64,000 nt of DNA, from positions 19,344,001-19,408,000 of the forward strand of contig OZ287752.1 in the NCBI GenBank assembly GCA_965649765.1. The letters run 5' to 3'. Position numbers and translations under genes: made by a program. The notes under the pieces are model-generated. The model searched no databases, had not been told where the DNA came from, and saw only the letters and a list, made by a program, of their open reading frames with translations. Below, piece after piece: positions 8,701 through 63,665 of the stretch. This DNA comes from Bispira polyomma. Lineage: Eukaryota. Positions within the stretch are counted from its first letter, which is position 1. Each line of letters starts with the position of its first letter.

Positions 8701-11700
8701 TTTTTAAAGAAAGGTGAGCAGCTTGCTGCTCTTTTTTTGAATGAAATGATTTTTTGCCAAGAATACAATCTTTTTCTGGGTGACCACTCACCCTTCCTCT
8801 TTCCAAGCAGGATGAACATATATGTTTGTGGAGCTTGCCCCCGATCTCGTGGTCCTTGACCTGGCTACATACTCCCGTTTGATAGGGTTTACAGTACCAA
8901 TACTTTTTGTTCTGATTTTGATCCGAATTTTTTCCCCAATTGTTTTTATATGTTTCTGCATGCTTCTGTGCATGAGCCCTCCTTATTCTATCAATCCTAT
9001 GACTGTCCTCCCAATTTAACGCCCCCCTCTCCATCTCGCACAGATGGACCTTGAGCAGCCTTGGCCGTTTGCCACCAGAAGTCGGTTGCGTCCTCCATTA
9101 GGTCCGACACATAAAGCAACATTTTTTCTTTAATATCCGAATTTGGCTCTTCAATAATGTTTTTAGAAAATCCCTGCACCCATTGGGTGAGCGATAACTG
9201 GTCATAGGAAATACGTTGTCTTGTAGTACCCCCCAAAATCGTTTCTTGTGGCCATGATATTTTGTTTTTGATTATTACATCAACATTTCCACCCCTTTTT
9301 GATTTAATTTTACTTGTACCCTCATTACCTTTCTGACTAGTGGACTCAGCCTCTAGCTCACGCACACCGGCATCAACCTGTTTTTGTAGCTCATTAGCAC
9401 TTCTTAACGCTGCTAGTTAAGGGACAATTTCCTCATCCGAGGATAACTCAGACGAGTCTTCTACTGTGGACACCACACGTTTTTTACTTTTAGTCTTATA
9501 CTTTGCTTTACTTAACTTGTTTTTGTCCTTCTTTGATGTCTCTCCCGCCGCCACCTTGTCCTCCACCACTTCCAGTCTTTTGTTGACCTTTCTCAACTGC
9601 TGTAGAATCTGGTGCTGAATGTCTTCATCTGATGAGGCTGGTTCTGTCGAGGAAGCTCTCCTGGCCTCTGTTGTTCTCTTGTTCACCCCACGTGTCACTC
9701 TTCCCTGTTGCTCGTCTGGCTGCTGCTCCTCCATCCTAGCGGTACAATTCTTTCCCGTCGGGGGATAATGCTTCTTCTGACACTTTTTACAGTTAACTTT
9801 ATTTTTACTAGGCATATTTGTTCGCCTTTATTTTTTGTTCAATAGTTCAGTATCTGTAGATAGAAATATAACCACACCACCAGTACGCTTTTCGATGCAA
9901 ATCCACGCTTGATAGCCAATTTGAACTAAAAACCCTACCAAATAATAATAGGTTAGACCATCCCTTTTTAGTGGCTTTTACAAGCCCAATCAAGCATGAG
10001 GTTGTCGAAGAGCGTGTTTGGTAGATGTGTAGCAGTAACCCAGTGTTGTAGTAATCACACACAAAATTGTAAATGTCTTTTTAAAATAAACTAAAATATG
10101 TATAAGTTAAAAGTTCCTTCACATAAAAACACAGAAATTTCCACACATTTAAATCACAACTGACTTCTTCAATAAGTCAGTTTGAACTGATTTGTTTACC
10201 CTTATTCTTTCAGCCGGGGCCAGTCTTGGCCAATTAGGTTAGTCGTATACTTGTTACCTTAGTGATAGGGGGGGGGGGTCGGAATGCAACCCATACCATA
10301 ATACACTAATTAGCCTGGTACCTTAAAATTTAGAGTTGGGTTGGAGGCCTGACCCCCGTGATGCCTTAACACCATAGACGAAAATGAGGCAAAAGTTCAG
10401 TAGAGTAAAATATTATAGCACAAAACGTATTCTAAAAAATTTGTAAGTCTAGACGCAATAGTTTTCCCTTGAATAAGAATGAGGCTAAAGTTCGATTTTG
10501 AGAACATTCATATACATCCAAACTGTTAACCAAATTTAGTAAAGATATCTGTAACAGCTTGTCTGCAAACGATAAAAAATAACTTCAATGGAGTTGTCAC
10601 AGAGGCCATCTTGTTATCCAAAATTATGCCAAAATTCAGTGGGAGCACGATATTTTAGCAGTAAACCTGTCCTGAATATTTGGTGAGGCAAGATGCAATA
10701 GTTTTACTCTGTCAGTGTTACCAAAAAAAACTCTTGCGTGGTGGCAGCGGCATAACCGCATGTAAACCAGAGTATCCACGGGATGGATACAATTAACATG
10801 AGCAGATATGCTGAATAACATTAAATGCAACTTACCTTGTTCACTTAGGTTCAGTTTTACCACCACTTCATCTCCTACACCATTATTCAGTACAACTTGA
10901 TACAGACCAAAGTCCTCAGCTATTACAGGGTCAAAGGTCAGTTCTATCAGAGTCTCATCCACTTTATCCCCTGCTGCTTCCACCTGTATACTGTTAGCAG
11001 GTATTTTAGAACCTTCAAACATGACGTCCACATGATCAGTAGTGACTGCCGGATAGGCCCTCACTGTACAGTTGAGTAAAGCCTTTTTATTTTCTTCTAT
11101 GTATGTGACCTTCTGTATGGGTGAACTCACATCAACTGGGGAAACTGAAATACACAGTAACCATTCTGAACATTTAGCAAATATATATCACTTAATGTAC
11201 TTTAACTTAATTAGATAATTAAGCGTGTATACAATCTAGGCTTTGAATGGGTGTAGAAAAATATAGCTGAATACACAAAAACTGCCTTGAAGCAATAATT
11301 TTAATGTTACAAGCAAATTATTCATTTTAACCAGTGGTCAATCTGAAAGTAGGCATTTCTCATTAATGTAAACATGTACACTAAGTCTACTAAAATAAAA
11401 AAAAAAGTAGTTGTACAACATATTTAACAAAATCACAAACAAAGCGATAGCTCAGGAGTTACAAGGGAATTACTCAAAGTAGCTATGGGTGCTATTGCTC
11501 ACTTAGCTACACTCCCAAGCATACTAAACGTTCCTAGAATGTAGCCAAGTGGGGTTACAGACCACAAAAAGACGGGTTGCACAATTTGTATAAGGGATAG
11601 GGTCTAGCAACAATTTTAATTTCATTATTTTGTAGCAGCCATCTTGTTTTTCGGAATGGGCCCAAATACAATTCCAACCAAGCTATTGACACGATACACC

Positions 11701-26700: not shown

Positions 26701-29700
26701 AACAAATTAATATCCTTACTTGGACCTAGCATCGCTCCAAGCGACATTTCTTTTTGTAGATATTCACCCACTGCTTGAGGGTGCTGTAATGCTGAAAAAT
26801 GATTTTTGACCTAGTCATTTCTAACCTCATTTGACTCTTTCAATGACAAGGGAAATTCAAATTGCACGTATTGAATTAGTAGTTCATCAGGGTAGTTCCA
26901 AGCGACATTCCTTTTTGTAGATATTCACCCACTGCTTGAGGGTGCTTTAATTTTAAGACCAGAACTTTTTTCCAGAACAATTTTTCCAGGCTTTAATTTT
27001 CAGACCAGAACTTATTGGTATCCTGACCTATCCGCAATTTTAAATTATTTTGAAATAGAATTCATTTTAATGGGTTGCCTAACTGGCCTCTGAAACTGAA
27101 AGTTTGTTGGTGAAAGTGCTATAAATCCAATTTCCTTACTGTGGTCATCGATATCCCTAGCTCGCTTGTTAACGGGGTTGCTAGTATTCTCAGTGAAAAA
27201 CATTTTAGTAAAGTTTTTGGAAGAAGAAAGGTTTGTGACTAAACTATGGTGTGTAAGAATGTTACCTTGTTTAAAGTCAGTGTCCTTGATCATGACAATA
27301 TTATTGACTGCATTTATTTTCCTAACATTTTGAGACAATTGAATTTTGTTATCACAATTTTCACATATGAGTACCAATATTTATTTTCCATTGTTGACAG
27401 AAAAAAACCTGAATGAGCCCATTATTGCTTCTGGCAAAAACTACAGGTAATGCCCGCATCCCTGTGTGCTGTATATATTGCCAATTTGTCACATTAACTA
27501 TCATGGTTCTGTCTTGATTATTGTTCCCCATACTGGTAATCATAGTTTTATTTTTTGTCACAGACACCATGACAACATCTTGTTTGACATAATGAACCTT
27601 TTATTCTTTCAGTATCTCAGGTTTCTGCTTAACAGAGTTCCTATCGTCTTGGACTGTGTCGACATGCATTAGACTCTTATTGGTTTCTAAAACATTCCTA
27701 CATATAATATCATTATATATGTTAGCATTATGTTTTATACAGTTTAATACATTTTCCTTATCTATTCCTTCTTTTTGAAATTCGTTATCGTTTTTAACAC
27801 ACATTACTACAGACATTACTACAGACATTACTACAGACATTACAATTTATAAATTTGTTATCAATAATGCACTCATATATGTTATCATTAACGTTAGGTA
27901 GTTTCTGCTTTCCCTTATGATCAACTAATTTTTAATGTTCTCTTTTAATTTCCCATTATTTAACTCACTGTTCCCCAAGTTCTGTGGTTCTGCAAGTCGA
28001 GTACCTTCCTATTTAGTAGCTGGCTGACTGTCAGCTTACTTATTAGCATTTGCTCTGTAACATTTAAATTCAGGATGTCCCTGCTCTTTCCCCAACACTT
28101 CAGAACAGTACCAACAGTCATGCTTGTAGCTCCCATGATATGATTTATACAAACACTTGCCATTGTTGAATAGCTTGCACTTCACTTTGGCATTGTTTGT
28201 GCTGTGACCGTACCTTGGCTAAGATGGTTGGCCATCACCAGTTGTGAGGCGTTGAATTGATTGATGGCCCATTGCGTGATCTCCTGCCAGGAAAGCCTAC
28301 CTTCTTCTATTTCCTGCATGTTCAGGGCCTATGCAGTACGTACTACGGGCCATGGAAGTGATGCTGCATCGCATAGTATGTATATGAGCTGATGTAGCAT
28401 ATTACTCCATTATCTGGAGGGCATTCAAAACCTGCCCTGCTACCCACTGAGGAAATGCTAGGTCATCAAACAAACTTTCTAGCTAACACAGCCCTTATTC
28501 GGCCATCTGAACCGAGCATCAATTGTGGTCACATCTGTGTTATTAAACCTTCCCGATTTTGTACGAGCACTCAGCTTACATTGAAGTAGGGTTTGGTTGG
28601 CAAGAATTTCATATTCAGTCAACTGATGTGACACTGCCAGTTGAATATTGGGTAGTGTTCTCAAGATGTCCACGCTTGGGATGATTCTGTCTGGGGCATA
28701 TTCACGCGGGATGACCCCTGGCTAGTGTTGCATTGGTAGAATTGTATGCCCCGTGTGGATGTGCTGATGCAGCAAGTGAGAGTGAACTGGGTGTCACTAC
28801 AGGGGTGGAACTAGTCATTGAACGAGCTTTGACCCTGTCTATTCTCATCTCCAGTCTTTTCAATATGGCCAGAACCTCGCTTGAGTTATCACTGGGGGCA
28901 GAACTGTGACTGTGAATGTGACCATTGGCCGTGAGAGGTGTACGATGAACAGGCACGTTCGTGGACAGAAGTTGGCTGTGTATGTTGTCTAGGCCAGAGT
29001 CTGAGTCCAACAAGGAGAACATAGCCGCCTCGCTGAATTGGCTTACAGGGTTTGTTATAGTAGAAGCTGATACCTGTGAACTCAAGACTTTTTCTTGTGC
29101 ACTCGTTTCTTTGCTGTTGGCTTCTTTGTTTTGAAAACGGCCCAATTCTGAGTTTTCTTGATGCCTCCCATGATCCCATGAGAACTGAATTCTCCCAAAC
29201 TGATTAGTACCATTCGTGACCAATGTATTACACACAGACTCGTGTTAAAATAAAAACACTTTGTAAAGAAGTTTAATATAAAAAAGGAAAAATAAAAAAT
29301 AATATATATGTGTGTGTTGTTTCTTCAATGTCGAAATTCAATATGGAAGCTTGAAAAAGCGGGAACTTAAGAAGGTAGCTAAAATTCTAATTGGCTGTTG
29401 GTTGGATAGATAGATGAAAAATTATACTGGTAGCTTAGCCTAATTAAAAATTAGGGTTAAACAGAACTAATTCTTTGTGGACTGACATAGCAGTTCCCTA
29501 AAGGTGTCTTGCTTACCAAAGGCTTTATAACTGGATAGTTCAAGCAATAAACTTCAAATTTTCAACGCATTGGACGATTTGTGAAATTCTTTTTGGCATT
29601 AGATCAGGGGAGAAAAGTTACAACACATATTAAATTGATGAATATTGTTGTTACATATGGAAAGTAGTACATAAATAACTCAAGAACAAATAATCGCAGA

Positions 29701-35700: not shown

Positions 35701-38700
35701 GGTTGCTCCCAGTGGGTAAATTTGTGTGAACAATTTGTCACCTGGATAATGGCGTCAGTTACAAATGTGCCCGCAAGTTTGTCTAGCCAGTTTTTGTGAA
35801 CCGTTTAATGACTGAGAAATCTTGTATCAATGTGAATGGGTACATTATTGCTACCAACTGCCTGCAATCTATTGGTGTACATTACCACATTATTATTGTC
35901 AAATTTAAATTCTTTTCCACTTATCTGATTATTATCCAAACTATTTATTTTGGGTACACTGACTTTCGCCTTACATATTTCACTGTTATCATAGCAGACT
36001 TCAGCTGGTGTACTACAGCTTAGCCTTGTTTGTAACTCATTTTCACTGTCAGTCACCTGACTGTTATCCACTTATAAATTTACTGATCTTTTTATCTTGA
36101 AACTTCGTAATTTGTTCAGTGTGACTGTCACATGACTCAGTATAACCACTGGGCTTGACTTGGTACATTTATTATTTCACATCTATTAGATTTCAAAGTT
36201 TTAATGTAATATACCCCGTTGTTACTGCCCCCCATAGGCTTTCCGTATGTTCGTTTATCTAGTGATTGGTAAAGATCCTAACTGTTGTTATTTGGTTTAA
36301 CCTTATGTTGCTTAGTTAAATTCGCCTGGTAGCACTTGAATTCTGGGTGTGTCACATCATTGTGCAGTACAGTGGCACAGTGCCAGCAAATGTGCCTTTA
36401 TTGCCCATAATCAGCTTTGAGGTTATATTTGAGTTATATAGTTTGCATATTGTCCTGGAATAGTTAGACGACTGGTTGCTGTGCAAATTATACGAGCCAT
36501 AAGAGTGAGATGACTGCGCCATGGCCATCTTGGATGCGTTGAGGCGGTTTAATGCTCATTGGGTGTTATCACCCCACTGAAGGTGATCCTCTTTAATCTC
36601 ATGCATGTTGTGTAACCATGAGGTCTGGAGTACCTCCCACGGAAGTGATGCAGCATCACGTACTGATAAAATCACCTGCTGGCACATTTCTTTAGAAGTG
36701 GCCGGATCTGTTTCCTGCATGGCGTTGGCTAGCTGGCCAGCCACCCACTTGGGTAAGAAGAGCTAATCAAACGTGGGACGTTTCCTGGATGTACCGCCCA
36801 CCCACCCTTAATTTGTCCATCTTAACTTAGGATCCGTTGTAGCCACTTCTGTACTATTAAATCTGCCAGACTTCTGGCGAGGAAGCAGCTTACCTTGGGT
36901 AAGTGTCTGGTGGGCTTAAGACTTATATTCAGCAAGCCGTTTGTTGACTAATGCTTGGCTAGTGACTTGCACTGTAGGCACGATGACTTCAGTCGTGTAG
37001 TCAGCGTGGATGGCAGGGAGCGTCGGCTGTAGTGGTGGATTCGATGGGAGCAATGGATTTGCTGTGATCGGGTTGATCTGTGAAGGAGCAGCCGGCATGG
37101 TAGTACTTTGGCCTAGCCGTGTTTCCATCTGGTCTAGTCGGTTTGTGATTCGTTTGTTGGATTTAGTTAACTTGTCAGGCATCGCAAGCATGGAATACAT
37201 GGCTTGACCGTCAGTACTCGGCCCAACATGGACGTTGTAGAAGTGTTAGACGCTTTGTAAACGAGGATCTACTGCCGAAACTACATGGCCATTGGTATTA
37301 TCAACGGGAATCTGAGTTCGGTGTAATAGAGGGGACACAAATTGGGCAGATAGAACCTGATTAAAAGGGACCTGTAACTCCGAGATGATACTGTCACTGT
37401 TCTCTCTGTTCACTACCTTCCAATGAGAAGTTTTGGTTTCGTTAGTACTTTTGCTGGTCTCTTTCTTTTTGTTCTCCGAGTGTGTCTTTTTTTGTCCAAC
37501 CCATGTTCAAATTTTTGTTTGCAACTTACTCAAAATTAATAAACAAATAAAGTAAAACTAAAATACTAAAATCATAAAACAATTGTATAATGTTCATGAA
37601 AATATAAACGTGCATTCTACAATATAATCTTCCCAGGTGTTGTTTCTTCAAGACTTAAAAAGGTGGGAAAACTTATTGTCCCTTAACACAAAGAGAATGG
37701 CTATATGTGTGGCTGGATGGACAGAGTGATTTTTTAGTCAACTCGCTTCTAGGTGTTAAGGTGGCTATATAATAATTTGTGGTATATGGGGGAACTGAAG
37801 TAGCAGACCCCTTCATGGTCATACCAGGAGAGAGTATCATAAACATACATTTGATCTAAGTGTGTCTATTTTGTGGGTAAACTATATCAATTGACGTGTT
37901 TTACTTGGTCTTGGTCACACACTTTATCAAATGAAATGCTTATTTTATTGCTAAGGAATATATAATATTATGGAGGCCTAAAATTTGTTTTTAGTTACAC
38001 CTTTTACAAGTTTTATAAAAATTTAGTTAAACTGAAAAATATCAATTGATTAAAGAACTACACAACTTCTAAACATTGTTCAAATGTTAAAATGTAATAT
38101 TTGGTAAACATTAAAGCTACTCCTCACAGTCAAGATGATTTACATGAGAACAATGTAAAAATACTACAGACAGACGAGTCATGGTCAATAAATTGAACCC
38201 AATAACATAATCCGAAACTGCAATGAATTAACAAATATTGTTCCTAGAAAACCAATGCTGGAATTCAGGAAATTGCCAAATGTGAAAGATATAGGTCTTC
38301 CTTAATCAGATTCCCATCAAACCTGATTTGGAAAGACAATCATTGATCACAATTAGGGAAAGGTAAATATCCTACAGTCCCAGATTGATAAGACACTCCG
38401 AAAATTTCTAGATATTCAAGAAATTTGTCAAGGCTGTCTCTTCTGTGAGACTAACTGTAACTGAAATTACCATCTCAAAATCTTTTTCACGAATAATGTT
38501 TTAAGATAATGATTTTCTAAATATCTGATTTCAAATCTATCCATGAAAGGTCAGCATAATTGGGAGCTAGGACACTGATCATAGCTTTGATCCTTAAGGT
38601 AAGGGCGATTATTTGGGGTACACAGTGTGCAAAAGATAACACAATTGGCAAAAAAAATATATTTGTGAAAAGTTAGTTGCGTCAGTTGCTTGTTACAACA

Positions 38701-44406: not shown

Positions 44407-46587
44407 GTCATACATTTGGTCACGCAGATAATTATATATATATATAAACACACACAGTCTATATTCCAGATACTTCCTTACTATATCAAGTACCCAAACC
44501 TAAGAATATGTCATACAGGTAAACACGATATGTGTAATGTATTATATTACCGTCGATTTATATTTCTTGTTATATCAATGTCTTTAAACAAATTGTAGAC
44601 TATTATAGAACTATTTTACATGAAAATATTTTGCCTGTAAAATATAGAAATAGATAAAGCTCACCCATTGGAGCTGAATATTTATAAATAAAAATTACTG
44701 TTTATTTAGTTTTCATTATATATAATTGTTATGCAACCATTATATTTTAATCTGGTATAAATTCATAATTGGTTTACAATTCTACTTAATTTAAGTTGGA
44801 ATGATATCACTGTCAGTGTTAAAGAAAGATAAAACTTAAGTAGGAAAAGGGCTTGGCAGTGTAGTATAGATAGGAGTTCCAAATTACAAACAAGTTTGAA
44901 AGCTAACGCTCCCAGCGTTGGCAGCCTCAGTTCTGGGGTACCAGGCTGTTCACTACTATGGGATGGATGGGCGAGTATATAAGCCATCCCCCTTTCAAAT
45001 TCTCCCGCCATTTACCGTTTGTCAGCAGAGCACTAGGAAAATTCAAATACTGTTTGGGTGACAAAGAGAGTGCTTTATGTTTTACACCGTTATATGGATT
45101 TTAGTATTTTAATTCAATATACACTCAAGTCATGCCAGGTAAAAAGACTGTGTTTTGTCCGAAATGTTTGCAAAAACATGAGAGACCGATTGGAAGAAAC
45201 TGTTCGGTTAATATGCCTGATGTCTCGGGTGAGGGAGTGGAGGTTGACGCTGGCTCCCATAAGGACTCGCTGGTTCATCCAAACGAGGTTGTATCTAGCG
45301 CTATACTACAGCAGTTGCACTGACTTAGCCAGGTAGTCGAGAGGATGGATCAGCGAGTCCAGCAGACGGAGGCAGCGTTAGCAGCCAACCTCACCAGTAG
45401 TAAGGCAAGTACCGTTCCTTCTAGCATCACTCCTAGTGTTTCTAAAAAGCTAGTCTCTGCTGACGAAGGTAAAAGCCCACCTACCGGCCCAGATACTGTC
45501 GTTCCGATTGTCAAATTTTTGAGTCAGAACGCTCAGATTCAGTTCCAAGTCAAACAGAGGTTAAAGGAACTCCGGTCTCTTAATGAAAATCCCTCAAGTA
45601 AAATTTAGTCTCAGAGAATTGGGGGAAATGAGGTTATTGTGAAAAAGGCCAATGGCCCCAGAATTATGTGCTGACCGGCAGTTCGAAGACTCGCCCTAGT
45701 TACGACGACTTAACCCTTGTACAATGGGTTTGTGGCTTCACCCGGATCGCTCATGAGGAGAAGTCGACTGAAATTAAGAACGCTATGCTAGATTACATGA
45801 GTGACCTCATGGAGGACGCCCAAGACTTTTCGTGGGAGGCGGCGAAGGCCTGCCACGCGGTAGTCCTAACCAATATGGAAATGGACAAGCTTGGGTGATT
45901 GGATGTCGAGAAGGTTGACTGGATTCGCAGGGCACACGCCCAACGTCATGTAGGTGTGTCAAGATCTATTCATGGGCGAATGGCCATGCTGTTTGCACTG
46001 GCAGTAGTAAAACTAGTCAGAAAAAGTCGACACCTTGCAGGGTATTCCAAGAAGGAACTTGCAAGTTCTCTAGCTCACATAATACAGGGGGGCAAAGAAA
46101 GGCATAGGCATAGTTGTGAAACTTGTGGGGGTAGTCATAAGACCAGTATGTGTAGCAAAAAAGAGGCAAAAAACTGAGGGGTCACTGCTTGGATGCAGTG
46201 GATAAAAAGGTAAAAAAATTTAAGGTTGTAAATAGAACTGTCTATGGCACAGGCTTCAAAGATTTTCATTTGTTTGAAAAAAATGTGTATCAGAAAATGT
46301 GTAAATATATGAAGGTCAAAAGGCCTAATGTTAGTTATAGTGATGCTTTAAAAAGTACTGCTAGTACCAGAAAACCAATGTTTGTATATAATACTGGACA
46401 TACAGAAAGTCTGAGCAATAAGGGTGGGGTTGACAGGTTTAACTCTGGAAAGGTGACACAAAAGGGCAGATTTTGCCAACCATAAAAGGTTGGTAGAGCT
46501 GAAATCAAGAATAATGTTGACACCTCTGCTGCCACATCTATTCAAAGGAGTGAAAAGTTAACACCTGCAATTGGCACCTCCATTCAA

Positions 46588-48720
46588 GTGGCTAAGAAAG
46601 TGACACCTATTGTGAAGCGACCCCCATGCACAAAGCAACAGGGTGTGGAGACCAAAGGTGTTAGAAAATCGATTCAGAGGGGGGACGAAAAGAGCCGCGT
46701 CAATGAAGCTAACTGTGGCCTTCAGCTTAACAATAGGTTTTCCACGTTGGCACAGATACCTGTGGAGGACAATGCAGTCATTGTGAGGGTCGTTCGCTCT
46801 AGTAACACGCCGGGTAACAATGGGGGCTTTGCAAAGCACCAAAAGACAAGTACTTGCGCAGAATGTGTTAATGAAAATGTTGAAACCTCTGATAAGTATT
46901 CGTGTGCTTTAAAGCACAAGAAAAATAAAAGGGAGTTGCTGCAGAAGGCGGCCTCGAATCAAACACACAAAAAATGGCAGGACCAGAGTAGTCATGCTTA
47001 TGGTTTTATTCCTCTCTCGGCTTTGGGCCGTGAGATTGCCGACCATGGTGGGGGAGGGCACAAACTATCCATATTACAAATGCATAAGAAACTACGTCTT
47101 GATGGCAGGCATAATTATACTGGCCTCCAGATTCCTGTCCATTGTCAATTAAAAGCTGAAACGTGGGGAAAGTATTTACAAACCTACTGGGATTGGCAAC
47201 TGCCTCTCTTTATAAAATACGGATTCCCTCTTGATGTGTGTCAAAAAATTTGTACCGAGTCGAATGAAACTAACCATAAGTCGGCAGAGGAATTTCCTCA
47301 ACATGTAGATGCCTATATGAAGGAAGAATGTGGCTTTGGGGCAATGCTTGGTCCTTTCGACACTCCACCAATTCAGAATTTGCATTGTTCCCCTTTAATG
47401 ACCAGACATAAACCCAACTTGATTAACAGACGTGTGATTGTGGACTTGAGTTGGCCTCAAGGGGCTTCAGTAAATGCAGGTGCTTCATCGACTTCGTATC
47501 TGGGTGTCGATTTTTTACTGTCTTACCATTCCATTGATCATCTTACTACTGAAGTGTCTAAATTGGGTAAGGATTGTCAGATATTTAAAATAGACGTGAG
47601 TAGGGCGTATCGCCACGTCCCCATCGACCCTGGTGACATTGACCTCTTAGGGTTGAAGTGGAAATCTTGCTATGTCAATAAGTCGCTGCCGTTCGGTTAT
47701 TTGAATGGCAGCACTATTTTTCAACGAATTTCGGATGCAGTGCGTTTCATAATGCACTCAGAAAATCATAACGTCCACAATTATATCGACGATTTTTTAT
47801 GTGTATCACTTCCCAGCAAAATTCAGAAAACGTTCATAAGACTGCAAGAATTACTTGCTGAACTGGGTCTTACAGTTAGTCAGAAAAAATTGGTTCCACC
47901 CAACACTGAGGTAGTCTGCTTAGGCATAATAATTGACACAGTCAAATGCACAACTTCTATCCCATCTGAAAAAATGGCAGAAATTCAGAGCAAGTGCAGG
48001 GATTGGGCTTCAAAAAACTATTATACCAAGAGAGAACTACAGTCCTTACTGGGCCTTTTGCTATATATCTCTAAATGTGTTAAATATGCTCGGGTTTTCT
48101 TGAATAGAATGTTGGAACTGCTACGAGATAATCACAGTAAAAATATAATTGTAATAAGTGATGCATTCAGATGTGACTTAAATTGGTTTAGAACTTTTGC
48201 AGAGCAGTTCAATGGTGTTTCCTTTTTCTTACATAAACCCATATCAGGCGAGATACAATTGGATGCCTGCCTCACAGGCATGGGGGGGGGGGGGGATTTA
48301 TGGAAATCAAGTATACCAAATTAAAGTTCCTACAGGTATGACAGAGTATAATATAGCTTCTCCCGAAATGTTGAACATTTTGGTAGCAATGAAGTTATGG
48401 GTCCAAAAATGGAAGGGTCAGAGAATTTTAGTAAGATGTGACAATCAGGCAGTAGTCAGTGTCTTACAGACAGGCCGTACTAGAGACCCCATTGCAGACC
48501 CCTATTGGCCACTTATACCAGAAACATATACATGTTAGCCAGTAAGTTTGACATTGAAATTGTTGTAGTCCATATTCTAGGTAGAGAAAATAAAGTGGCT
48601 GACTTACTTTCCAGATGGGCAGAGACAGAAAGTAACCACCTATTATTAAATCAACTGGCTGGACCAATTCCATGGCTTCCTGCCCCTGAAAATTTACTTC
48701 ATGTGAACACTCTTATATAG
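46588..48720 (+). pseudogene. Element D reverse transcriptase / RNase H
   Basis: KIDVSRAYRH, LPFG, NYIDD, CLGI motifs; LDAC, RCDN, VADLLSR RNase H motifs; frameshifts at the poly-G (~48282-48296) and ~48500. Confidence 0.92.
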
Positions 48721-48744
48721 CAGGTGCTAGTTTTTCTTTTCCAG

Positions 48745-49730
48745 GCACTCACCCTGTGGGTCTGGCTCTGATGAGACGGGCTTGTGATAGGCTGAACTTA
48801 GCTCTGACTCCTGCCACTAATAAAGCATATGACAGAATGTTCCAACAGTTCCTAGCTTTTGGAGCCTTTATGTCGTGGCCTCCCCACAAGGTGACTGTGT
48901 TGCAAATTTTAGCATAATTAGAGTTTCTAAATTTCAATGGTGTTTCGGCCTCTCAGGTAGTAAATCACATCTCGGCTGTGAAGGCAAAATGTGTTATGTT
49001 TCATATAGATGTTCAAGTATTTTCTGATCAGAGAATTTCTTATTTCACTAAAGCCTTGGCTATGCATAGACCTTTACAAGCGAAATTGAAGTCAATTTTT
49101 GATGTGCACTTGCTTAGGGCTCTCATTAGTAAATGTGATAGTACTTACATGGGCCAAATTTTCAAGGCTGTTTATTTGACAAGTTTTTTTACATTTTTGC
49201 GTTTATCCAATCTGTGTCCTCATTCAATGGGGTCATACTCTCCTTTTAAGCAATTAGCTAGAGCTGATGTTTTGTTTAAGCCAGGGTATACAGTCATCAT
49301 GGTTAAATGGTTTAAGACGCTGCAGAAAAATGATGCAGTTCGGTTGCTAACCATCCCAAGTATATAAAATTCAATTCTTTGTCCTGTTCAGGCCTTGAAA
49401 GCTGTGTTAGCCATCTCATTTAAAGGAAAAAATCTCCCATTATTTCAATTTAAACTCCAAGGCTCGTGGATTCCACTAACGGACACATGTGTGCGAAGGC
49501 ACCTCAAAAATGTACTATCCTTACTTGGTACTCAATACTCTGGCTTGACCTTTCACGCCTTCCGACGTTCAGGTACCACCTTTGCGTTTAACAATAATGT
49601 CAAGATTCAGGATATTCAAAAACATGGCACCTGGACGTCGGATTGCGTGTGGCGTTACATCTCAGACTCTGCTGATGCTGGTACTCCAGTTGCAGATTCC
49701 TTTAAAGATGTCCTACAAAACACCTACTAG
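48745..49730 (+). pseudogene. Element D tyrosine recombinase
   Basis: FFTFLRLSN (R), HAFRRSG (HxxR), HGTWTSDCVWRY (H/W, Y); in-frame stops. Confidence 0.92.
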
Positions 49731-51686: not shown

Positions 51687-54600
51687 AGCAAGCACGACCA
51701 TAAAGGAGTCTGCTACTTCAGTTCTCCACAATTCAAAACATTTTATATGTAATGACCCTAACCCCTGTGGGACGAGTTGACCATAACTTTACTCTGTCAA
51801 TCCACCCACACATACAGCCATTCCCTTTGTGTCTAGCCATACTATTTTTCCCACCTTTTTAGAATCCCCATATTGAAACGTGGTTCTGAAGAAAGCACAC
51901 CACGGGAAATTAAATTGTGGAATTCAAGTTATATTAACATAAACATTATACATTTAGTTTTATGGTCTTAGCATTTTAGTTTTATTTAGTTTGTTTATTA
52001 ATCTTAAGTGAGTTGCAAACGATTTTGTGAAATGGGTCGTACGAAAAAGACACCTTCAGATAATAAAAAGAAGGAGGCAAGTAAAAGTACCAGCTAAGCC
52101 AGAACTTCTCGTCGGAAAATAATACAGAAAGTGGACAGCGACAGCAGGATCACGGACTCCCAGGTTCAACTTAATCAGGTTCTTTCTGCTCAGTTTGCAT
52201 CCCCTTACTACACGGAACTCAGATCCCCACTGATATCACCATTGGTTATTTAACTGCGGCAGTAGACCCTCGTTTACAGATCACCACTGCTCCCGCCGGG
52301 CAAAGTTCGGATGTTCAGGCGATGTCGCCCATACTCACGATGCTGGACAAGCTAACAAAGTCCAACGGGCTAATCACGAGTAGACACAACCAGATGAAAA
52401 GACGGGTAAGCCAGAGTATTACCCCACCGGCTGCTCCCACCCAGGTCAACCCAGTCGTAGTAAATCCACTGCCAACAGTGAATCCAGTACCACAGCAAAC
52501 GCCTGAGCTCCACACTGACTACATGGCTGATGCTATCGTCCCAACAGTAGACATACTGAAGTTACTACCTGACGTCCAAGCACTGGTCAACAAACGCCTC
52601 GCTGAGTACGAAGCACAAGCACAACAAACTCTTACCCAAGGTAAGCTGGCCCCTCGCCAGAAGTCTGGCCGATTAAATAGCACCCATGTGGCCCCCAAAC
52701 TAAGGTGGGCAAATGAATGTTGGGTGGGCGGCAATTCCAGGAAATGTCCCACCTTTGATGAGCTCTCATTACCCCAATGGGCGGCCGCTCAACTGGCAAA
52801 TGCCATGCAGGTGATGGATCCAGCGACTTCTCAGGAAATGTGTCTGCAGGTGATCTTATCACTACGCGATGCAGTGTCATTTCCATGGGACATAGTGCAG
52901 ATTTCCTGGTTGCATAATATGCATGAGATCGAGGAGGGTCATCTTCAATGAGGAGACACTACCCAGTGGCCATTAAACTGCCTTAATGAATCTCAGATGG
53001 CCCTGCCTCATTCTGGGAGTTTTCACGGCAACTCGCACAACACACAGTCATCCAACTCGTCCAGGACCATATGCAAGCTATATAATTCGGGTAAATGTAC
53101 CAACAAGACTGACCATGGACAGTACAGACACATCTGCTGGCACTGTGCCACTGTACTACACAAGGATGTGACACACCCAGAGTTTAAGTGCTACAGAGCA
53201 AACTCGACTAAACAACATGAGGTTAAACCCAGTAACTACAGCTAGGATCCTTGCCAATCACTAGATGAACAAACATATGGGAAGTTAATTGGGGGCAATA
53301 ACAATGGGGTAGACTACAATAAAATTTTAGAAACTGATATGTTTAAAATAGAAAACGTCAATAGAACTAGGTTCTACAGTTGTTCTGAGTCACATGACAG
53401 TTATATGACTCAATTAGGTAAGTTTCAAGAGAACAATGTGAATAAGTTTGTAAATAATATGGCCAACAGTCAGGTGACTGGCAGTAAAAATAATGTTCAG
53501 GAAAGTATAGGCTGTAGTACAACAGCTGAGTACCATAGTATTACCAATGAAATATTGAAGGTGAAAGCTGAATTGGAAAACATGGACATTCAGATGACTG
53601 ATGAACAACTTCAATTTAGCAATAACAATGTCATTATGTACACTGACAGGTTACATGAAGTTGGTAGTGATAATGTGCACATTTATCTGAATACAAGTAT
53701 TGACAGTGATGAAATGATTTACAACAAAACAGTTAGATCAAACTTCAGACACAGTCATGACTGATGACTATCCAGGTGACGAATTGGTCACACAAATTTA
53801 ATTATTGGGACAAACCACTCCCAGTTTTACATATTCAAACTGAGAAACCAAAGTTGTCGGGTTTCTTCATTCAAAAATATAATGCCAACCAACAACTATA
53901 TGATTATTTGGAGTGTTAAAGACTACCAGCTGGTCCTCTGTCAGTCTTACAAATTATAGAAACTGAGGTAGTAATAACTACTTCAAAAGATAATCTTGTC
54001 ACTGATGTAAGTTACAATGACATAGATCTGGGTGACATCACACCCAAAGAAGTGTATGATAATTATAAGAAAGATATTGAATGTACCACAGAGCATGGAT
54101 GTGACTACACAACTTTCATCACAAAAATTATAGACAAAATTATCAAACTAGACAAGGCTGTTTTGCGGCACAACAGTGTTAAAACATTGAATAATAATGT
54201 ATGTGATATGAATAATGTGATTAACATGAACATGGAAGTTCAAAACAAGATAATCTTAACGTCGTCTGACTTCTTTAACAAATTTTCAGAAATTTCCACT
54301 GACAAAAAAGTTACCAATAAGGAAAAGATTTGTGACATAAACTTGTCCAGTAAGGATAAGGGTTTTATAGTGTTGTCAGATACCAGTTTCACATTTGAAG
54401 GACAGATAGGGAACCCATCCTTATTTCAAGCATACCACAGTTATTAGACATAGCAAACATTATTCACTCAACTGGAGTTTCTAACTACAGGGGGGCAAGA
54501 ATCCGCCTTGTTTCTGGTCTTAAACTAGAAAACTGGGAAAAAATTTTGAAGGACCACCCTGATAAATTACTTCCACTATCCCTTACTAACCCAAAGGAAC

Positions 54601-56773
54601 TTAAAGTAAAAGAAGCTACCAACCATCATTCTGCCCTCCAACGAATTACAAAATTTGTACTTAAATTCCCAACAATAGATGATATTGTGGCGGAAATACG
54701 GGTTACACCGAAAGCCAGGATTATGAAACTAGACATAGCCAGAGCATTCAGAAACCTACGGGTAGATCCTGTCGATGCCATTAAACTGGGCATTTGTTTT
54801 GGAGAGTACGTGTTACTTGCTTAGGTATAGACATTGATATAACTGAAGGTACTATCAGTATTACACAGGACAAAATTGAAGAAACCTATCAGTTATGTAA
54901 GGAAGTTTATGATAAACAGTGGATTTCTAAAGGGAAATTTAAATCTATATTAGGAAAATTATTATATATCCACAAATACGTTAAGCCAGCCAGGGTTTTC
55001 AAGAATTTAATCTGACCAATATACAGTTAGGGAACAAACAGTATTAATGCAACAGAAGTTTGTGTGGCATCAAATCCGAATGCACTTCTTTGCATTTGAT
55101 ATTCATTTATAATTTCAGGTTCTACTGAAACTACTCAAGCTCTAATGGGATCAACCTGGGCAAGAATCAATACAGTCCTAAGACCAAAGACTTTTTCCAC
55201 ATATAACAACCAGTTTAAGACATTCATGGCATTTACTTGTTTTGCTGGGGTACAAATTATAAACACACATTTGGTGATTGCCTTTCTAGAATACCTGGTT
55301 CAAAATGGCTCATAACCTGGTGCAATTAATAACTACATGTCATCTCTTAAGTTCATGGCTAGAAAGTATTCTTGGGATGTTACCATATTTGAGAATAACA
55401 CAGTAGCTATGTTTCTCAGGAGTTTAACACATAACTCACAATTCAGACCACAACTCAGATGCATTTTTGAAATTCAACATCTGCTTCTCATTTTCAAAAT
55501 CATGTGATATCCTTTCTGATCCAATTCTGGACAGAGCAATTTTTCTATTATCATTCTTCGGTTTTCTGAGGATCTCAAATATTGCACCCCACTCAAAGGC
55601 CCAGTTTGATCCCACAAGGCACCTATTAAGGAAGGATGTTATTTTTGGCCCACCAGGGGCACAGGTGATAATAAAATGGGCGAAAAACCTACGAACAAGA
55701 GGTGAGGTTCATATTATACAGACACCAAATTTACAGAACAGGGACTTATGTCCAGTCAAGGCATTACAGCAGCTATTACATTCTTGACCATTTACCCTCT
55801 TTTTGCTGCCTGTACTCCTCCATATTGCTCAGGGGGCGGCGGTGGCCTAGTGGTTAGCAAGCATTGTGCTTCACAATCACTGGTCTCTCACCTCTGGGCG
55901 GTGTGAGTTCGAATCCCGTCGATGTCTATGTGGGAAAGGTGGTAGTTCCTTACTGTGGGCCGCTGGTTTCAGTGCAGAACCTTGATCAACTGTATGCAGT
56001 GTTTCCTCCAGCATTTCCAACTACCCGTCCCAATATAACCTAAACAGGTACTAGAGTGGACGTTAAATATCCAAATTAAAATCCATATTGCTCAGTTACA
56101 GACACACATGTGCGTTCTGGACTTTTACCAGTACTAACACACTGTGGAATCTCACACAAATCTCACAGTTTCTACATATTTAGAAGATCAGGCGCAACTT
56201 TTGCATTTAATAATAATGTATCCCTCCTGAATATCATGGCTCATGGTCTCTGGAGATCATCAGCTGTCTGGACAGACTTGCAGAAAACTTCACAGGCAGC
56301 TTCCACAGTCCCACTTACCTTCGCCTCTGCCATTCCCCTCTCTTTCTAGTTTGGCTTGGGTGTTTTAAAATTATAATAATATTTTTAAAAATTACCATTT
56401 TAACCCTCTTTACTCTGTATACTATGTCCTAAACTTGTAGAAAAAATAAATTCTGAAACCTATAGTTTTACTACATCTTTTCACACCTCCTACACTAGAA
56501 TATAACCTCACACTAACTCCTTATGCTTGATCCACATTTGGGCGAACTGTAGCAAGCATAACAATAAAGTGGTCTGCTACTTTAGTTCTCCACAAATCAA
56601 AACATTTTATATGTAACGACCCTAACCCCTGTGGGACGAGTTGACTATAACTTCACTCTGTCAATCCACCCACACATACAGCCATTCCCTTTGTGTCGAG
56701 CCATACTATTTCCCACATTTTTGGACCCCCTTATTGAATGTGGCTCTGAAAAAAGCACACCACAGGAAATTAA
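51687..56773 (+). mobile_element. YR retrotransposon E (Ngaro-like)
   Basis: A repeats at 51687-51913 and 56551-56773; gag 52032-53245; RT with deletions (KLDIARAFRNLRV); YR 55119-56349 (FFGFLRISN, FRRSG, HGLWRS). Confidence 0.92.
55833..56081 (+). mobile_element. Full-length tRNA-derived SINE inserted in element E YR
   Basis: A box TGGCCTAGTGG, B box GTTCGAATCC; 14-bp TSD TCCATATTGCTCAG at 55819-55832 and 56082-56095. Confidence 0.92.
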
Positions 56774-59254: not shown

Positions 59255-62200
59255 TTGAGCCACAGGTCCAGCAGATCCCGCAGCAGCCGATTAATGCTCT
59301 CGATTATCAGAAGAACTGAATAGTGCCCAGTGTTGATGCTCTCAGGGCCATACCTAGTGTTCAATCTGCTGTCTCGTGCCAAGTGACTGAATATGAAGCA
59401 TTGGCGCACAAACACTTGCTCCAAGGTAAGGTGAACCCAAGAACAAAGTTCGGCAGGTTTAACAGTACTGATGTCACAACAGGGGATGCTCAATTTCGGT
59501 AGCTGAATGGGGGATGGATCAGGGGTACCGCCCAGAAATGTCTGACCTACAATAAACTTTCACTACCGCAGTGGGTGGCAGGGCAAATCTCCAATGCTCT
59601 GCAAGAACAAGACACGAGCTTATGAGAAGCATGATGCTTCAGCTTGTATATGCCATGCGGGACGGCGCCTAATTACCTTGGCCGGTTGTCAGGACAGCCT
59701 GGCCCCTCAACATGCAGGAGGTGGAGGATGGTCGGCTGTACTAACAGGAAAACATGCAGTGGGCGTTGAACAGGCTTAACGCCTCTCAACTCACGATGGC
59801 TAACAGCAGCCTCAGTGACAGTAACCATACGACGCAAGGAGGGAATTCAAATGGGGCCAAGGTGATCTGCAAACTGTTTAATAATGGTAAATGTTCAAAT
59901 AAGTCAGACCATGGTAACTATAAACATAGCTGTTGGTATTGCAGCAAGGTGCTAGGTAAAGAACAAAGCCACCCTGAATTCAAATGTTACCGGGCTAATG
60001 CCAACAAACAGTCAGAAAATTCTGTATCAAATAAATAGGTAAATATTCAACTAGCAGAATCACATGCCATAAATACTAGTCTAGTAATAAGAACAGAAAG
60101 AACAGTCATCTAATTGAGTAAAAGTGAATGATAAAAAGCAGCAATTAAATGTCGATAAGAACAATTACAAACATAATGAGGCAGTAAGTAAAGTTGAAAT
60201 TAATACAGTTGTTACCCAATCTGTAAATTACATGTCAGACTGTCAACAAGTGATAAATGTCATTAATGGAAATAATGTAAGCCAAAAGGTTCTCGTTTAA
60301 GGTTTTCCAGATATGGGCTACAATGTACACAGATGTGTCACAAGCAGACCATGAGGGAAATAATGTGAGTCATAATGTACTTGTACAAGGTTCTACAGAT
60401 ATGGGCCACAGTGTACTCAACACAGATTTGTCACAAGCAGACCATATGAACACGAGACACTAATTCAGATCTGATAACGCTAAAGATCTAGAATATAACC
60501 AATTATATATGAACAACAGCAGCAAAACATACAAAGTTAGAATAGATGTGACAAATTGGAATTACATAAGAAACAGGGGGGCAATTCCCCTTTCCCATAG
60601 TATACATTCACAGACACAATGGCCTTTTTAAAAAATTCTACTGTCAAATCTGGGATCAGGCTGCTGGTGTTCATTATCATAACCAAATTAAGTTAAAACC
60701 TTCTGGTTTACTAATAATTTTAAATTCATTTTCTGTAATGTTAGAATATCAGGAATGTCAATATTTCTAATGTGGTATTGAATACAATTATGTTTCTGCA
60801 AAAGACAAACGACAACCTGAGGACGTTAAATTGTTTTATGACATGAGATATTACATGTTTGGACAGATATAACATGGACTATACTATGTATATGAAGCAA
60901 ATTATTGACTGCATGATTGATGACTGTAAAGTGACTGACAAAAACACAGATAATGTAGATAATAATGTATGTATAACAATGAACAGGAAGACAGACAAAA
61001 TGACTGGAAAAAATGAAACAGGTAAGAGTCGTTCGCTTTGTTATGTCATCATAAATCTGGCTTCTTCAGAACATTTTAATCACATGTTAAAAATGGTCAG
61101 GAAACCTGTTATCTGGCCTACATATCAAAGCATGGGAGAACTTACTAAAGGAATATCCTGACCTCTTATTAACTCAGTACATTAAGTTTGGATTCCCTCT
61201 GTCTTTGACACAGCCAGACGGGATAACAAATCATAAGGTAACAAATCATTTTTCGGCTACTCAGTACCCTGATGCAGTAAGGCAATACTTGGAAAAGGAA
61301 ATATCATTAGGGGCCATGTTAGGGCCTACTAAGGACATTTCAGATCCACAGTACAATTGTTCACCACTATTAGGCCAAAAGATATCAAAAAAGGGTTGAC
61401 TCATATAATACCTTTCTTACCCACAAGGAGCCTCTGTTAATGACAACGTTGATAGGGGCAAATTTGACAGAGTCGCCTTTCTATTAAAGTTTCCAAACAT
61501 AGATAACATTACAGAGGCAATTCAAAGTACTGATGATCCGGTAATATTTAAAATTGATGTTGCACGCTCCTGTAGGAACCTCCGTATTGACCCAATCGAC
61601 GCCATGAAACTAGGAATATTTTGGGATGTTGAATACTATGTTGATCCGGCAATTGCGTTCGGCTGGGTCCACCGTAGCACTGCCTTCCAGCGTTGTCATT
61701 TATGGGTAATCATGGTTACCAGGTACTTGGATGTATAGATGATTACGTTTGCATTACCTCAAGAGAACATGCGCAAGCGGGTTTCGATATTTTACATGCT
61801 ATCATGATGAAATTAGGTTTACCTCTCAATGCAGATAAGCTCACTCCACCCACTAAGAAACTTACTTGTCTGGGCATTGACTTTGACATCACAGCAGGCA
61901 CTATTAGTATTCAACTTGAGAAATTAAAGGACGTTCACAAAACATGCCTCGAAGTGCATGATAAGAAGTATATTTCAAGAACAAAATTTCAATCACTCCT
62001 GAGTCAACTGCTTTATATTCATTAATGCGTCGCCCTGGTCAGGATATTCATTAACAGGTTTTTAGCTGCATTTAGAAACAATGGTATGAACAAAAGATTC
62101 AAGGTCAGCAGTGAAATGCAAGCTGACATCCAATGGTTCATAAAATTTTTGGAAAAAATTTATGGCATAACATATATACACAAAGACATTATTTCGCATG

Positions 62201-63665
62201 CAAACGAGTTGCATTTGGATGCCTGTCTCACCAGATTCGGGGGAGTATGGAATAACGAGGTATATGCCACTTCATTCCATGGTATTTTTAACAGAGAATT
62301 GACAATTGTTCATTTGCGTTAAAAAATTGGACCGAACAGTGAAAACACCAGAAATTGAGCATCAACTGCGATAATATGGCTGTGGTTCTGGTAGTTGACC
62401 ACAGAAAACTACAGATAAATTTTTAGCACTTTGCTTAAGGAACATATGGCTAATTACAGCAGCATATGATATTACTCTTGAGATTAAACACATTCCTAGA
62501 AAAAAAAACATAATTCCTGATGCATTATCTAGAATATATTCAGTAAAGGGCATTGACAATAATCTATTGCAATCAATTAGAGATAACAATGTTTGGAGAT
62601 CAGTCCCACTTGAATATTTTAATTCAAACCTAACAATTTAATTTCAGGTTCTTCACCTATTACTCAGCAGGACACAGCACGGGCCAGGATCAATACTGAT
62701 TAAAGACCAAAGTCTAATTCAGCATGTGAAGGACAATTTAAAACATTTCTAGCATTTTTACAGTATTCAGGTATCCAACACATTACCACACATGCTGTAA
62801 TTGCCTTTTTGGAATATTTGGCTAAAAACAATCAATTCCTGGGACCATTAAAAATTATATGGCTTAGATTTATTGCGAATAAATATGTATGGGACCTCTC
62901 TCTTTTCAGACCCAATTCAGTATCTCCGTTTCTCAGGAGTTTATCTCATAATTCTTCATTTAGACCCAAACCTAAGGGCATTTTTACTATTCAGAAATTA
63001 CTGCAAATTTCAGCTACATGTAAAATTTTGGATGACCCAATCTTATTTAGGGCAATCTTCTTGGTAGCATTTTTCGGGTTTTTAAGGCTATCAAATATAG
63101 CTCCTCACTCTAGGAAAAATTTTGATTCATCCAGACATTTCCTCAGACAAGATGTGGTTTTTGGTCACCCGGGAGCCCACATCATACTAAAGTGGGCGAA
63201 AAACCTACAAAACACAACAGACACACACATTATTCAAATTCCAACCCATTTAGAACAAATTACTATGCCCAGTAAGGGCTCTTATGGCTCTCCTCCATTC
63301 TAGGAAGTTGGACAATAGCCAACCTCTGTTTGCACAGGACAAAGCACCTTTTCTCACAATAGTTGACTCACACGTTAGGGCAGCATTGCAAACAGTTCTC
63401 TCACACATAGAATTGCAATATAGTTCCAACGGATTTCACACTTTCAGAAGGGCGGGAGCCACTTTCGCTTTTAACAATAATGCATCCCTTCAAAAAATTA
63501 TGTCCCATGGCCTTTGGAGATCTTCCGCTGTGTGGACCGTTCCACAAAAAACCTTCCAAGCAGCTTCTGTGGTCCCTCTAAGTTTCGAGGCTGCCATTCC
63601 TTCTTCTTTCTAGTTTGGCTTGGCGCCAAAAATTTTACTTTTATTTTAAAAATTTTAAGCATTTG
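59255..63665 (+). mobile_element. YR retrotransposon F (related to B), 5'-truncated
   Basis: gag 3' half (CKLFNNGKC...CWYC...HPEFKC); RT (KIDVARS, CIDD); RNase H (LDACLT); YR 62648-63613 (FFGFLRLSN, HTFRRAG, HGLWRS). Confidence 0.9.

Follow-up and report, generated by a model that had tools for sequence, protein, structure and literature searches.

How is a tyrosine recombinase (YR) translated when its reading frame has no start codon? For retrotransposons of the Ngaro type, the printed answer is a guess only, namely, a -1 frameshift. The question is raised by a 64,000-nucleotide (nt) stretch of the Bispira polyomma genome (contig OZ287752.1, positions 19,344,001 to 19,408,000; the window), where six decayed YR retrotransposon copies (A to F) lie within an animal genome of 1.03 Gb. 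An initial annotation, made from the letters of the window alone, proposed that a splice donor in the middle of gag is joined to an acceptor just past the RNase H region of pol. Comparative sequence evidence strongly supports a spliced subgenomic mRNA of this kind, which would encode a fusion of the N-terminal part of Gag with YR, Gag(N)-YR, of about 460 to 660 amino acids (aa); we put the probability of this reading at roughly 80%. What is observed is a conserved pair of donor and acceptor signals in a known element type: all 12 families have both sites, in a constant phase and with synonymous positions conserved.

Eleven of the 12 families come from this genome and one comes from another organism; added sources were 20 loci from a Pfam PF00589 search and two metagenome contigs of another organism (L100 and L101). 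YR identity between families with intact frames is 26 to 66% (L107 is represented by L105, and L120 is not included). In the gag of all 12 families, the codon pattern xxA-GGT-Axx, which forms a phase-1 AG/GTA donor (the slash marks the splice point), lies no more than three codons from one alignment column, 137 to 331 codons into the frame. The residues encoded there vary, with Gln, Ser, Arg, or Leu before the glycine and Lys, Asn, Thr, or Met after it, and the synonymous bases are invariant. GGT accounts for 27 of the 91 glycine codons in these gags, and mixed codons are found at control glycine columns (six other conserved columns in gag and four in YR), which show that synonymous sites are saturated at these distances. 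At the other end, a phase-1 YAG acceptor stands 20 to 21 codons ahead of the arginine of the RPxT motif in 12 of 12 families. From the junction to the YR stop, 13 of the 14 reading frames have 320 to 329 codons and the remaining one has 309. Elsewhere in gag, phase-1 AG/GTA occurs in 12 of 1584 six-codon windows, and within YR, 272 of 3216 windows of two codons contain a phase-1 YAG. The splice-like sites are well beyond chance.

Of the 20 loci from the PF00589 search, 14 show the acceptor directly, and the donor was seen in 16 of the 17 with a gag match, the exception being L108. The six without a direct acceptor were left out of the 12-family set: L102 and L104 carry point changes, L117 and L108 are frameshifted, L113 has no pol upstream, and L119 is without a YR start. 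L113 has a YR frame of 367 codons (L113:5717-6817) with no gag or pol match upstream within its 9-kb stretch and may be another kind of YR element. Both donor and acceptor are present in the metagenome contig L100, where a noncoding spacer of more than 300 nt precedes the acceptor, and L101 has the acceptor. The junction was also compared with homologous proteins from outside this set, of which 31 of 39 fit, but control windows fit in 5 to 26 of 39, so this test is weak.

Every splice-like string reported for the window was found at its position, in phase 1 for both gag and YR (Table 1). Family-wide conservation of the sites, which the proposal predicts, was borne out with loci fetched from the top of the similarity lists (38 E type, 20 D, 20 F, and 20 A). 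Per copy, the AG/GTA donor is present in 32 of 37 E-type, 20 of 20 D, 20 of 20 F, and 19 of 20 A elements, and the YAG acceptor, where the region survives, is present in 23 of 25, 20 of 20, 19 of 20, and 15 of 16, respectively. The donor of D had been described as weak, which is true of the copy in the window; this is a private mutation, since CAG/GTAAAA stands in 20 of 20 D relatives. D, E, and F are distinct families as annotated, whereas E and C, which had been counted separately, are one family. The choice of AAG or AAA for the donor lysine had been singled out as a test, and its outcome favors the proposal. Among 14 E-type lineages, those that keep the residue all use AAG (13/13), as they all use CAA (13/13) and GGT (13/13) for the two codons before it, while a nearby lysine is AAA in 5 and AAG in 5. 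The three donor codons are thus frozen at synonymous positions; third-base variation is seen in 34 of the 36 other codons of this stretch and is absent from two. AAG is frozen in the E-type lineages but is not universal, as D has AAA and A has the Asn codon AAT.

In the mechanism that we propose, the unspliced RNA would serve both as the genome and as the mRNA for Gag and Gag-Pol. From a fraction of the transcripts, the host spliceosome would remove an intron of 2.8 to 3.5 kb, thereby skipping pol, and translation of the recombinase would start at the gag ATG. The predicted E-type intron is ∼3.4 kb in near-complete relatives and spans the 3' half of gag and the entire reverse transcriptase (RT)/RNase H region. 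Predicted fusions are ∼523 aa in E, 656 in F, 483 in D, 498 in A, and 458 in L100. In an AlphaFold2 model of the L100 Gag (mean predicted local distance difference test score, 72; predicted template modeling score, 0.38), the junction falls at Gly138, a predicted domain boundary where helix 117-138 gives way to a low-confidence linker. The fusion is predicted to retain the N-terminal knuckle of Gag in families having one, the long helix 50-78, and a conserved helix pair; the central helical domain would be missing, as would the C-terminal zinc finger. What remains of Gag might tether YR to Gag assemblies, a putative role that we rate somewhat below even odds. A search for the Gag fold gave no Foldseek match, and the best VIA hit (Z 5.3) was uninformative.

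In the leaders of 11 pol open reading frames (ORFs), no conserved acceptor that could serve pol was detected, so that a plan of one donor with several acceptors is not evident here. The gag end carries an A AAA AAC slippery heptamer with a predicted downstream hairpin in four families (L087/L086, L042/L052, L110/L116, and L120; ∼46170 in window copy D), while pol lies in frame behind a single stop, in a readthrough-like arrangement, in five types (E, F, L100, L107, and L112). Related families seem to have switched between the frameshift-like and the readthrough-like mode of recoding. In the family A locus L091 (1105-4761), gag and pol share one 1219-codon frame, probably through a private indel. 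A further-reaching proposal, which we regard as somewhat less likely than not, is that the animal Ngaro recombinase is made only from spliced mRNA as Gag(N)-YR, the Gag helices of which would coassemble with full-length Gag and carry the enzyme into the particle. The printed frameshift model would then give way to a plan like that of retroviruses, with three routes (one to Gag, one to Gag-Pol through frameshift or readthrough, and one to Gag-YR through splicing).

Several results weigh against splicing or limit what the conservation can bear. The sites were chosen near an alignment column, with a tolerance of a few codons. A crude score of our own, which places the acceptor among the top 5 of 147 to 243 AG sites in 11 of 12 families, speaks for splicing but was devised after the sites had been seen. 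Because of shared ancestry, the 12 families are not fully independent, and no joint probability is given. Neither a spliced RNA nor a fusion protein was observed. Pattern searches of the genome for intron-less copies returned 0 matches each for the exact E junction and for D, L110-type, and F patterns, which are nonintron variants; the L109/L115-type pattern returned 4 chance-level matches with no junction, compared to 7 for a reversed-pattern control. These searches left out family A and five other families, and the positive control was 17 unspliced E matches. Among 126 sequences scanned locally, there were 125 Gag-block and 130 YR-N matches, none of them adjacent, and no Gag block was found in 271 matches of a YR search, the top ones of which resembled gene calls on DNA. 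No fusion protein was found among the 120 best of 357 and the 150 best of 14,401 matches listed; two longer YR matches were both RT-YR, and 5 gag matches were without a fusion. The ESM Atlas held YR clusters of 321 to 367 aa only and nothing above 0.8 for Gag-N. In alignments with three runs, which consist of contigs, none of the 15 listed joints (of 65) was the predicted junction, but the contigs span element and flanks alike, and this result has no weight either way. No relative was found among viral contigs.

If splicing is real, the pairing or the purpose could still differ: the YR acceptor may be joined to a donor in the 5' leader, the mid-gag donor may mainly bind U1 and so control the processing of the RNA, or the Gag part may be cleaved off or inert. 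The pairing of donor with acceptor is inferred solely from matching phase, further AG/GTR sites exist in gag, and in plant Ty1/Copia elements, termination is controlled by U1 bound to a donor in gag (PMC5580714). The mid-gag donor, however, is the one site at a common place in 12 of 12 families, is always phase matched to the acceptor, and sits at the predicted domain boundary, and the pol leader is without a conserved acceptor. We consider these variants very unlikely.

A second alternative is that YR is translated alone, either from an internal promoter or by reinitiation once translation has terminated at the end of RNase H, with an AUG or near-cognate codon as the start and the splice-like strings as by-products. 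AUG-independent reinitiation is known for ORF2 of L1. An in-frame ATG is found near the junction in 6 of 12 families. In family A, it occupies one of two adjacent codons 6 to 7 codons upstream of the junction in 16 of 16 copies (L081 to L099); it overlaps a branch-point-like YTAAY, for which dual constraint and chance are both possible. In L103 and L112, the RNase H stop is part of an AUGA overlap; position -24, the spot of that overlap, is also where 14 of 79 anchored outside proteins start, most of them with M-I-S-G/D. The position of the ATG is not conserved (-18, -7/-6, -5, -3, +9, or none), and in the other 6 families there is no in-frame ATG before the RPxT arginine; the SAM-like domain match begins at YR residue 14 to 20. 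The clearest case is L100, where a 337-nt gap is followed by the acceptor with no ATG before the arginine. Independent translation also leaves unexplained the invariant AG in spite of varying residues and the synonymous freeze at the gag donor, and we judge it very unlikely. The AUGA overlaps, the starts of the outside proteins, and the ATG of family A suggest that reinitiation may be a side route in some families.

The printed proposal is programmed -1 frameshifting at the end of RT/RNase H, giving a Gag-Pol-YR polyprotein; according to the quotation in PMC13003380, Poulter and Butler (2015) regarded it as probable that such a shift takes place where RNase H and YR overlap. The overlap was found as printed in 8 of 12 families, and slippery heptamers were found in two of the eight (L103 and D, in 16 of 20 copies). 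Six of the eight are without such a heptamer, and L087, L100, L109, and L120 have no overlap at all. Across families, the junction follows the RNase H stop at a distance of 9 to 337 nt (the RNase H of L042 has a premature stop, and the D spacing was taken from the family instead). Nine families have YR in frame -1 relative to RNase H, three have it in frame 0, and one subfamily (L081) has it in frame +1, while the splice phase is constant. A -1 frame arises automatically wherever the distance from the RNase H stop to the end of a phase-1 acceptor is a multiple of three nucleotides. Sister copies of family D that lie on separate contigs have in common indels that shift the frame downstream of the slippery site and upstream of the acceptor (support, 1.0, 0.98, and 0.76) or have together lost the slippery site, although mobilization in trans could also spread such changes. 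The four families without an overlap, the six without an ATG, and the variable spacer and frame together argue against -1 frameshifting as the general route. It also leaves the gag donor unexplained, and we consider it highly improbable. Splicing appears to be the sole general route to the recombinase of these elements.

The elements are Ngaro-type YR retrotransposons of the order DIRS, as judged by their gene order, repeats, and missing methyltransferase. Intact relatives have the order gag, RT/RNase H, YR (Pfam PF00078, RNase H-like, and PF00589/PF02899), with Gag called by position and zinc-finger motifs and without a defining Pfam match. No methyltransferase of the Dam/MT family was found in the 5 pol proteins scanned, and the pol stop follows directly after RNase H. 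Both pairs of split direct repeats (A1-ORFs-B1-A2-B2) were seen in 11 of 24 self-compared sequences (L012, L031, L060, L070, L071, L103, L109, L110, L115, L120, and window A), with the internal repeats downstream of YR; window E has the A pair only, and the remaining sequences show neither pair within the fetched stretch. A DIRS1-like assignment, which calls for inverted terminal repeats and an internal complementary region, was rejected because self-comparison gives direct repeat pairs and no terminal inverted pair. A PAT-like element would share the split direct repeats, but the methyltransferase is absent here; some derived PAT elements are likewise without it, according to PMC4157794. Our YR tree holds only elements found in this analysis, without named reference Ngaro sequences.

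Gene order, absence of a methyltransferase, and split direct repeats agree with the Ngaro descriptions in PMC9210276, PMC4157794, PMC3783388, PMC3266345, and PMC8547959, as does a YR frame that varies relative to pol, which is also found in fungal Ngaro elements (PMC3783388). A -1 overlap of YR with RT/RNase H is described in print and is not strictly defining; 8 of our 12 families have it and 4 do not. Our elements differ in having the conserved gag donor and pre-YR acceptor, where the printed proposal was a frameshift (quoted in PMC13003380). They also differ in the spacing of A2 and B2, which are drawn as adjacent in print but are separated by 476 to 904 nt without a long ORF in the 8 copies examined (e.g., L071 6668-7365, oriented). 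No fourth ORF (SGNH hydrolase) was seen in this spacer in those copies.

Table 1. Features of elements A to F in the window (numbering from its first base)
Feature	Position	Strand	Details
Element E, 5' split direct repeat A1	51687..51913	+	90% identity to 56551-56773
Element E, gag	52032..53245	+	ATG 52032, stop TAG 53243-53245; 5' part decayed
Element E, predicted phase-1 splice donor, mid-gag	52638..52646	+	Gln-Gly-Lys; CAAG/GTAAGC, last exon base 52640
Element E, predicted intron	52641..55118	+	2478 nt in this deleted copy; inferred from sequence
Element E, pol (RT/RNase H)	53246..55112	+	internally deleted; stop TAA 55110-55112
Element E, predicted phase-1 splice acceptor	55104..55119	+	AATTTCAG/GT; AG at 55117-55118, first exon base 55119, 9 nt past start of RNase H stop
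Element E, YR exon	55119..56349	+	broken; SINE-like insertion 55833-56082; 324 codons in intact relatives
Element E, repeat A2	56551..56773	+	pairs with A1
Element D, donor position	45595..45603	+	last exon base 45597, G>A here; CAG/GTAAAA in 20/20 relatives
Element D, acceptor	48730..48745	+	first exon base 48745; 27 nt past start of RNase H stop TAG 48718-48720
Element F, donor	59423..59431	+	last exon base 59425
Element F, acceptor	62633..62648	+	first exon base 62648; RNase H stop TAA 62639-62641
Element C, donor (E family)	36888..36896	-	last exon base 36894
Element A, donor AAG/GTAATG	9323..9331	-	last exon base 9329; acceptor deleted in window copy
Element B, donor position, mutated	28574..28582	-	last exon base T at 28580

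The window copies themselves are relics. Copy E has frameshifts and stops in gag, deletions in RT, a stop after 64 codons of YR, and an insertion resembling a short interspersed nuclear element (SINE); no intact fusion is possible from it, and the case therefore rests on its relatives. The insertion is on the plus strand, contains A/B-box-like motifs, and has a target duplication of 13 bp on either side (55820-55832 and 56083-56095); it resembles a tRNA-derived SINE, although ARAGORN detected no tRNA in it. The acceptor that copy A has lost is present in 15 of 16 anchored relatives, and an acceptor was looked for in copies B and C without success. The D family has an extra phase-1 AG (∼48721-48724) directly past the RNase H stop, 21 to 24 nt upstream of the main acceptor at 48738-48745, which could yield a slightly longer product. 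The elements are clustered and nested in one another, with 6 copies in 64 kb here and a second family inserted in several loci (L007, L025, L037, L038, and L086). Immunoglobulin-domain exons of a host gene lie on the minus strand at 10636-11187 and 43497-44015, and their A/T-rich acceptors resemble the element acceptors in style; several elements lie between these exons and are possibly intronic.

We found no prior report of a gag-to-YR splice in the literature, where subscription reviews, supplements, and Repbase entry texts were beyond reach. Retroviral env and foamy-virus pol are 3' genes reached by a subgenomic mRNA that splices out pol or gag, with donors in or near the leader, whereas the donor of the elements described here is within gag. 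The closest analogue is the SD' RNA of murine leukemia virus (MLV), described in PMC10496198. There, too, a donor lies inside gag and its acceptor lies toward the end of pol, and joining them fuses Gag-N to an integration enzyme; the product, P50, is packaged in virions. According to that source, P50 is accessory and has no more of the DDE integrase than its last 116 aa, whereas the Ngaro fusion would hold the whole recombinase, and SD' RNA reintegrates as a processed copy, none of which was found for the elements here. Conserved splicing also sets protein ratios through the short GAG RNA of plant Ty1/Copia elements (PMC5580714), but that spliced RNA makes Gag alone, while the product here would be an integration enzyme.

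The exact junction coordinates make the question of how the start-less Ngaro recombinase is translated directly testable. If splicing is the answer, the real protein is a Gag-tagged recombinase, which would alter both the annotation and the biochemical study of the enzyme. It would also mean that a host-type intron is kept while unspliced RNA is packaged, so that these elements would need a retrovirus-like balance between spliced and unspliced RNA, one that would be open to silencing by the host.

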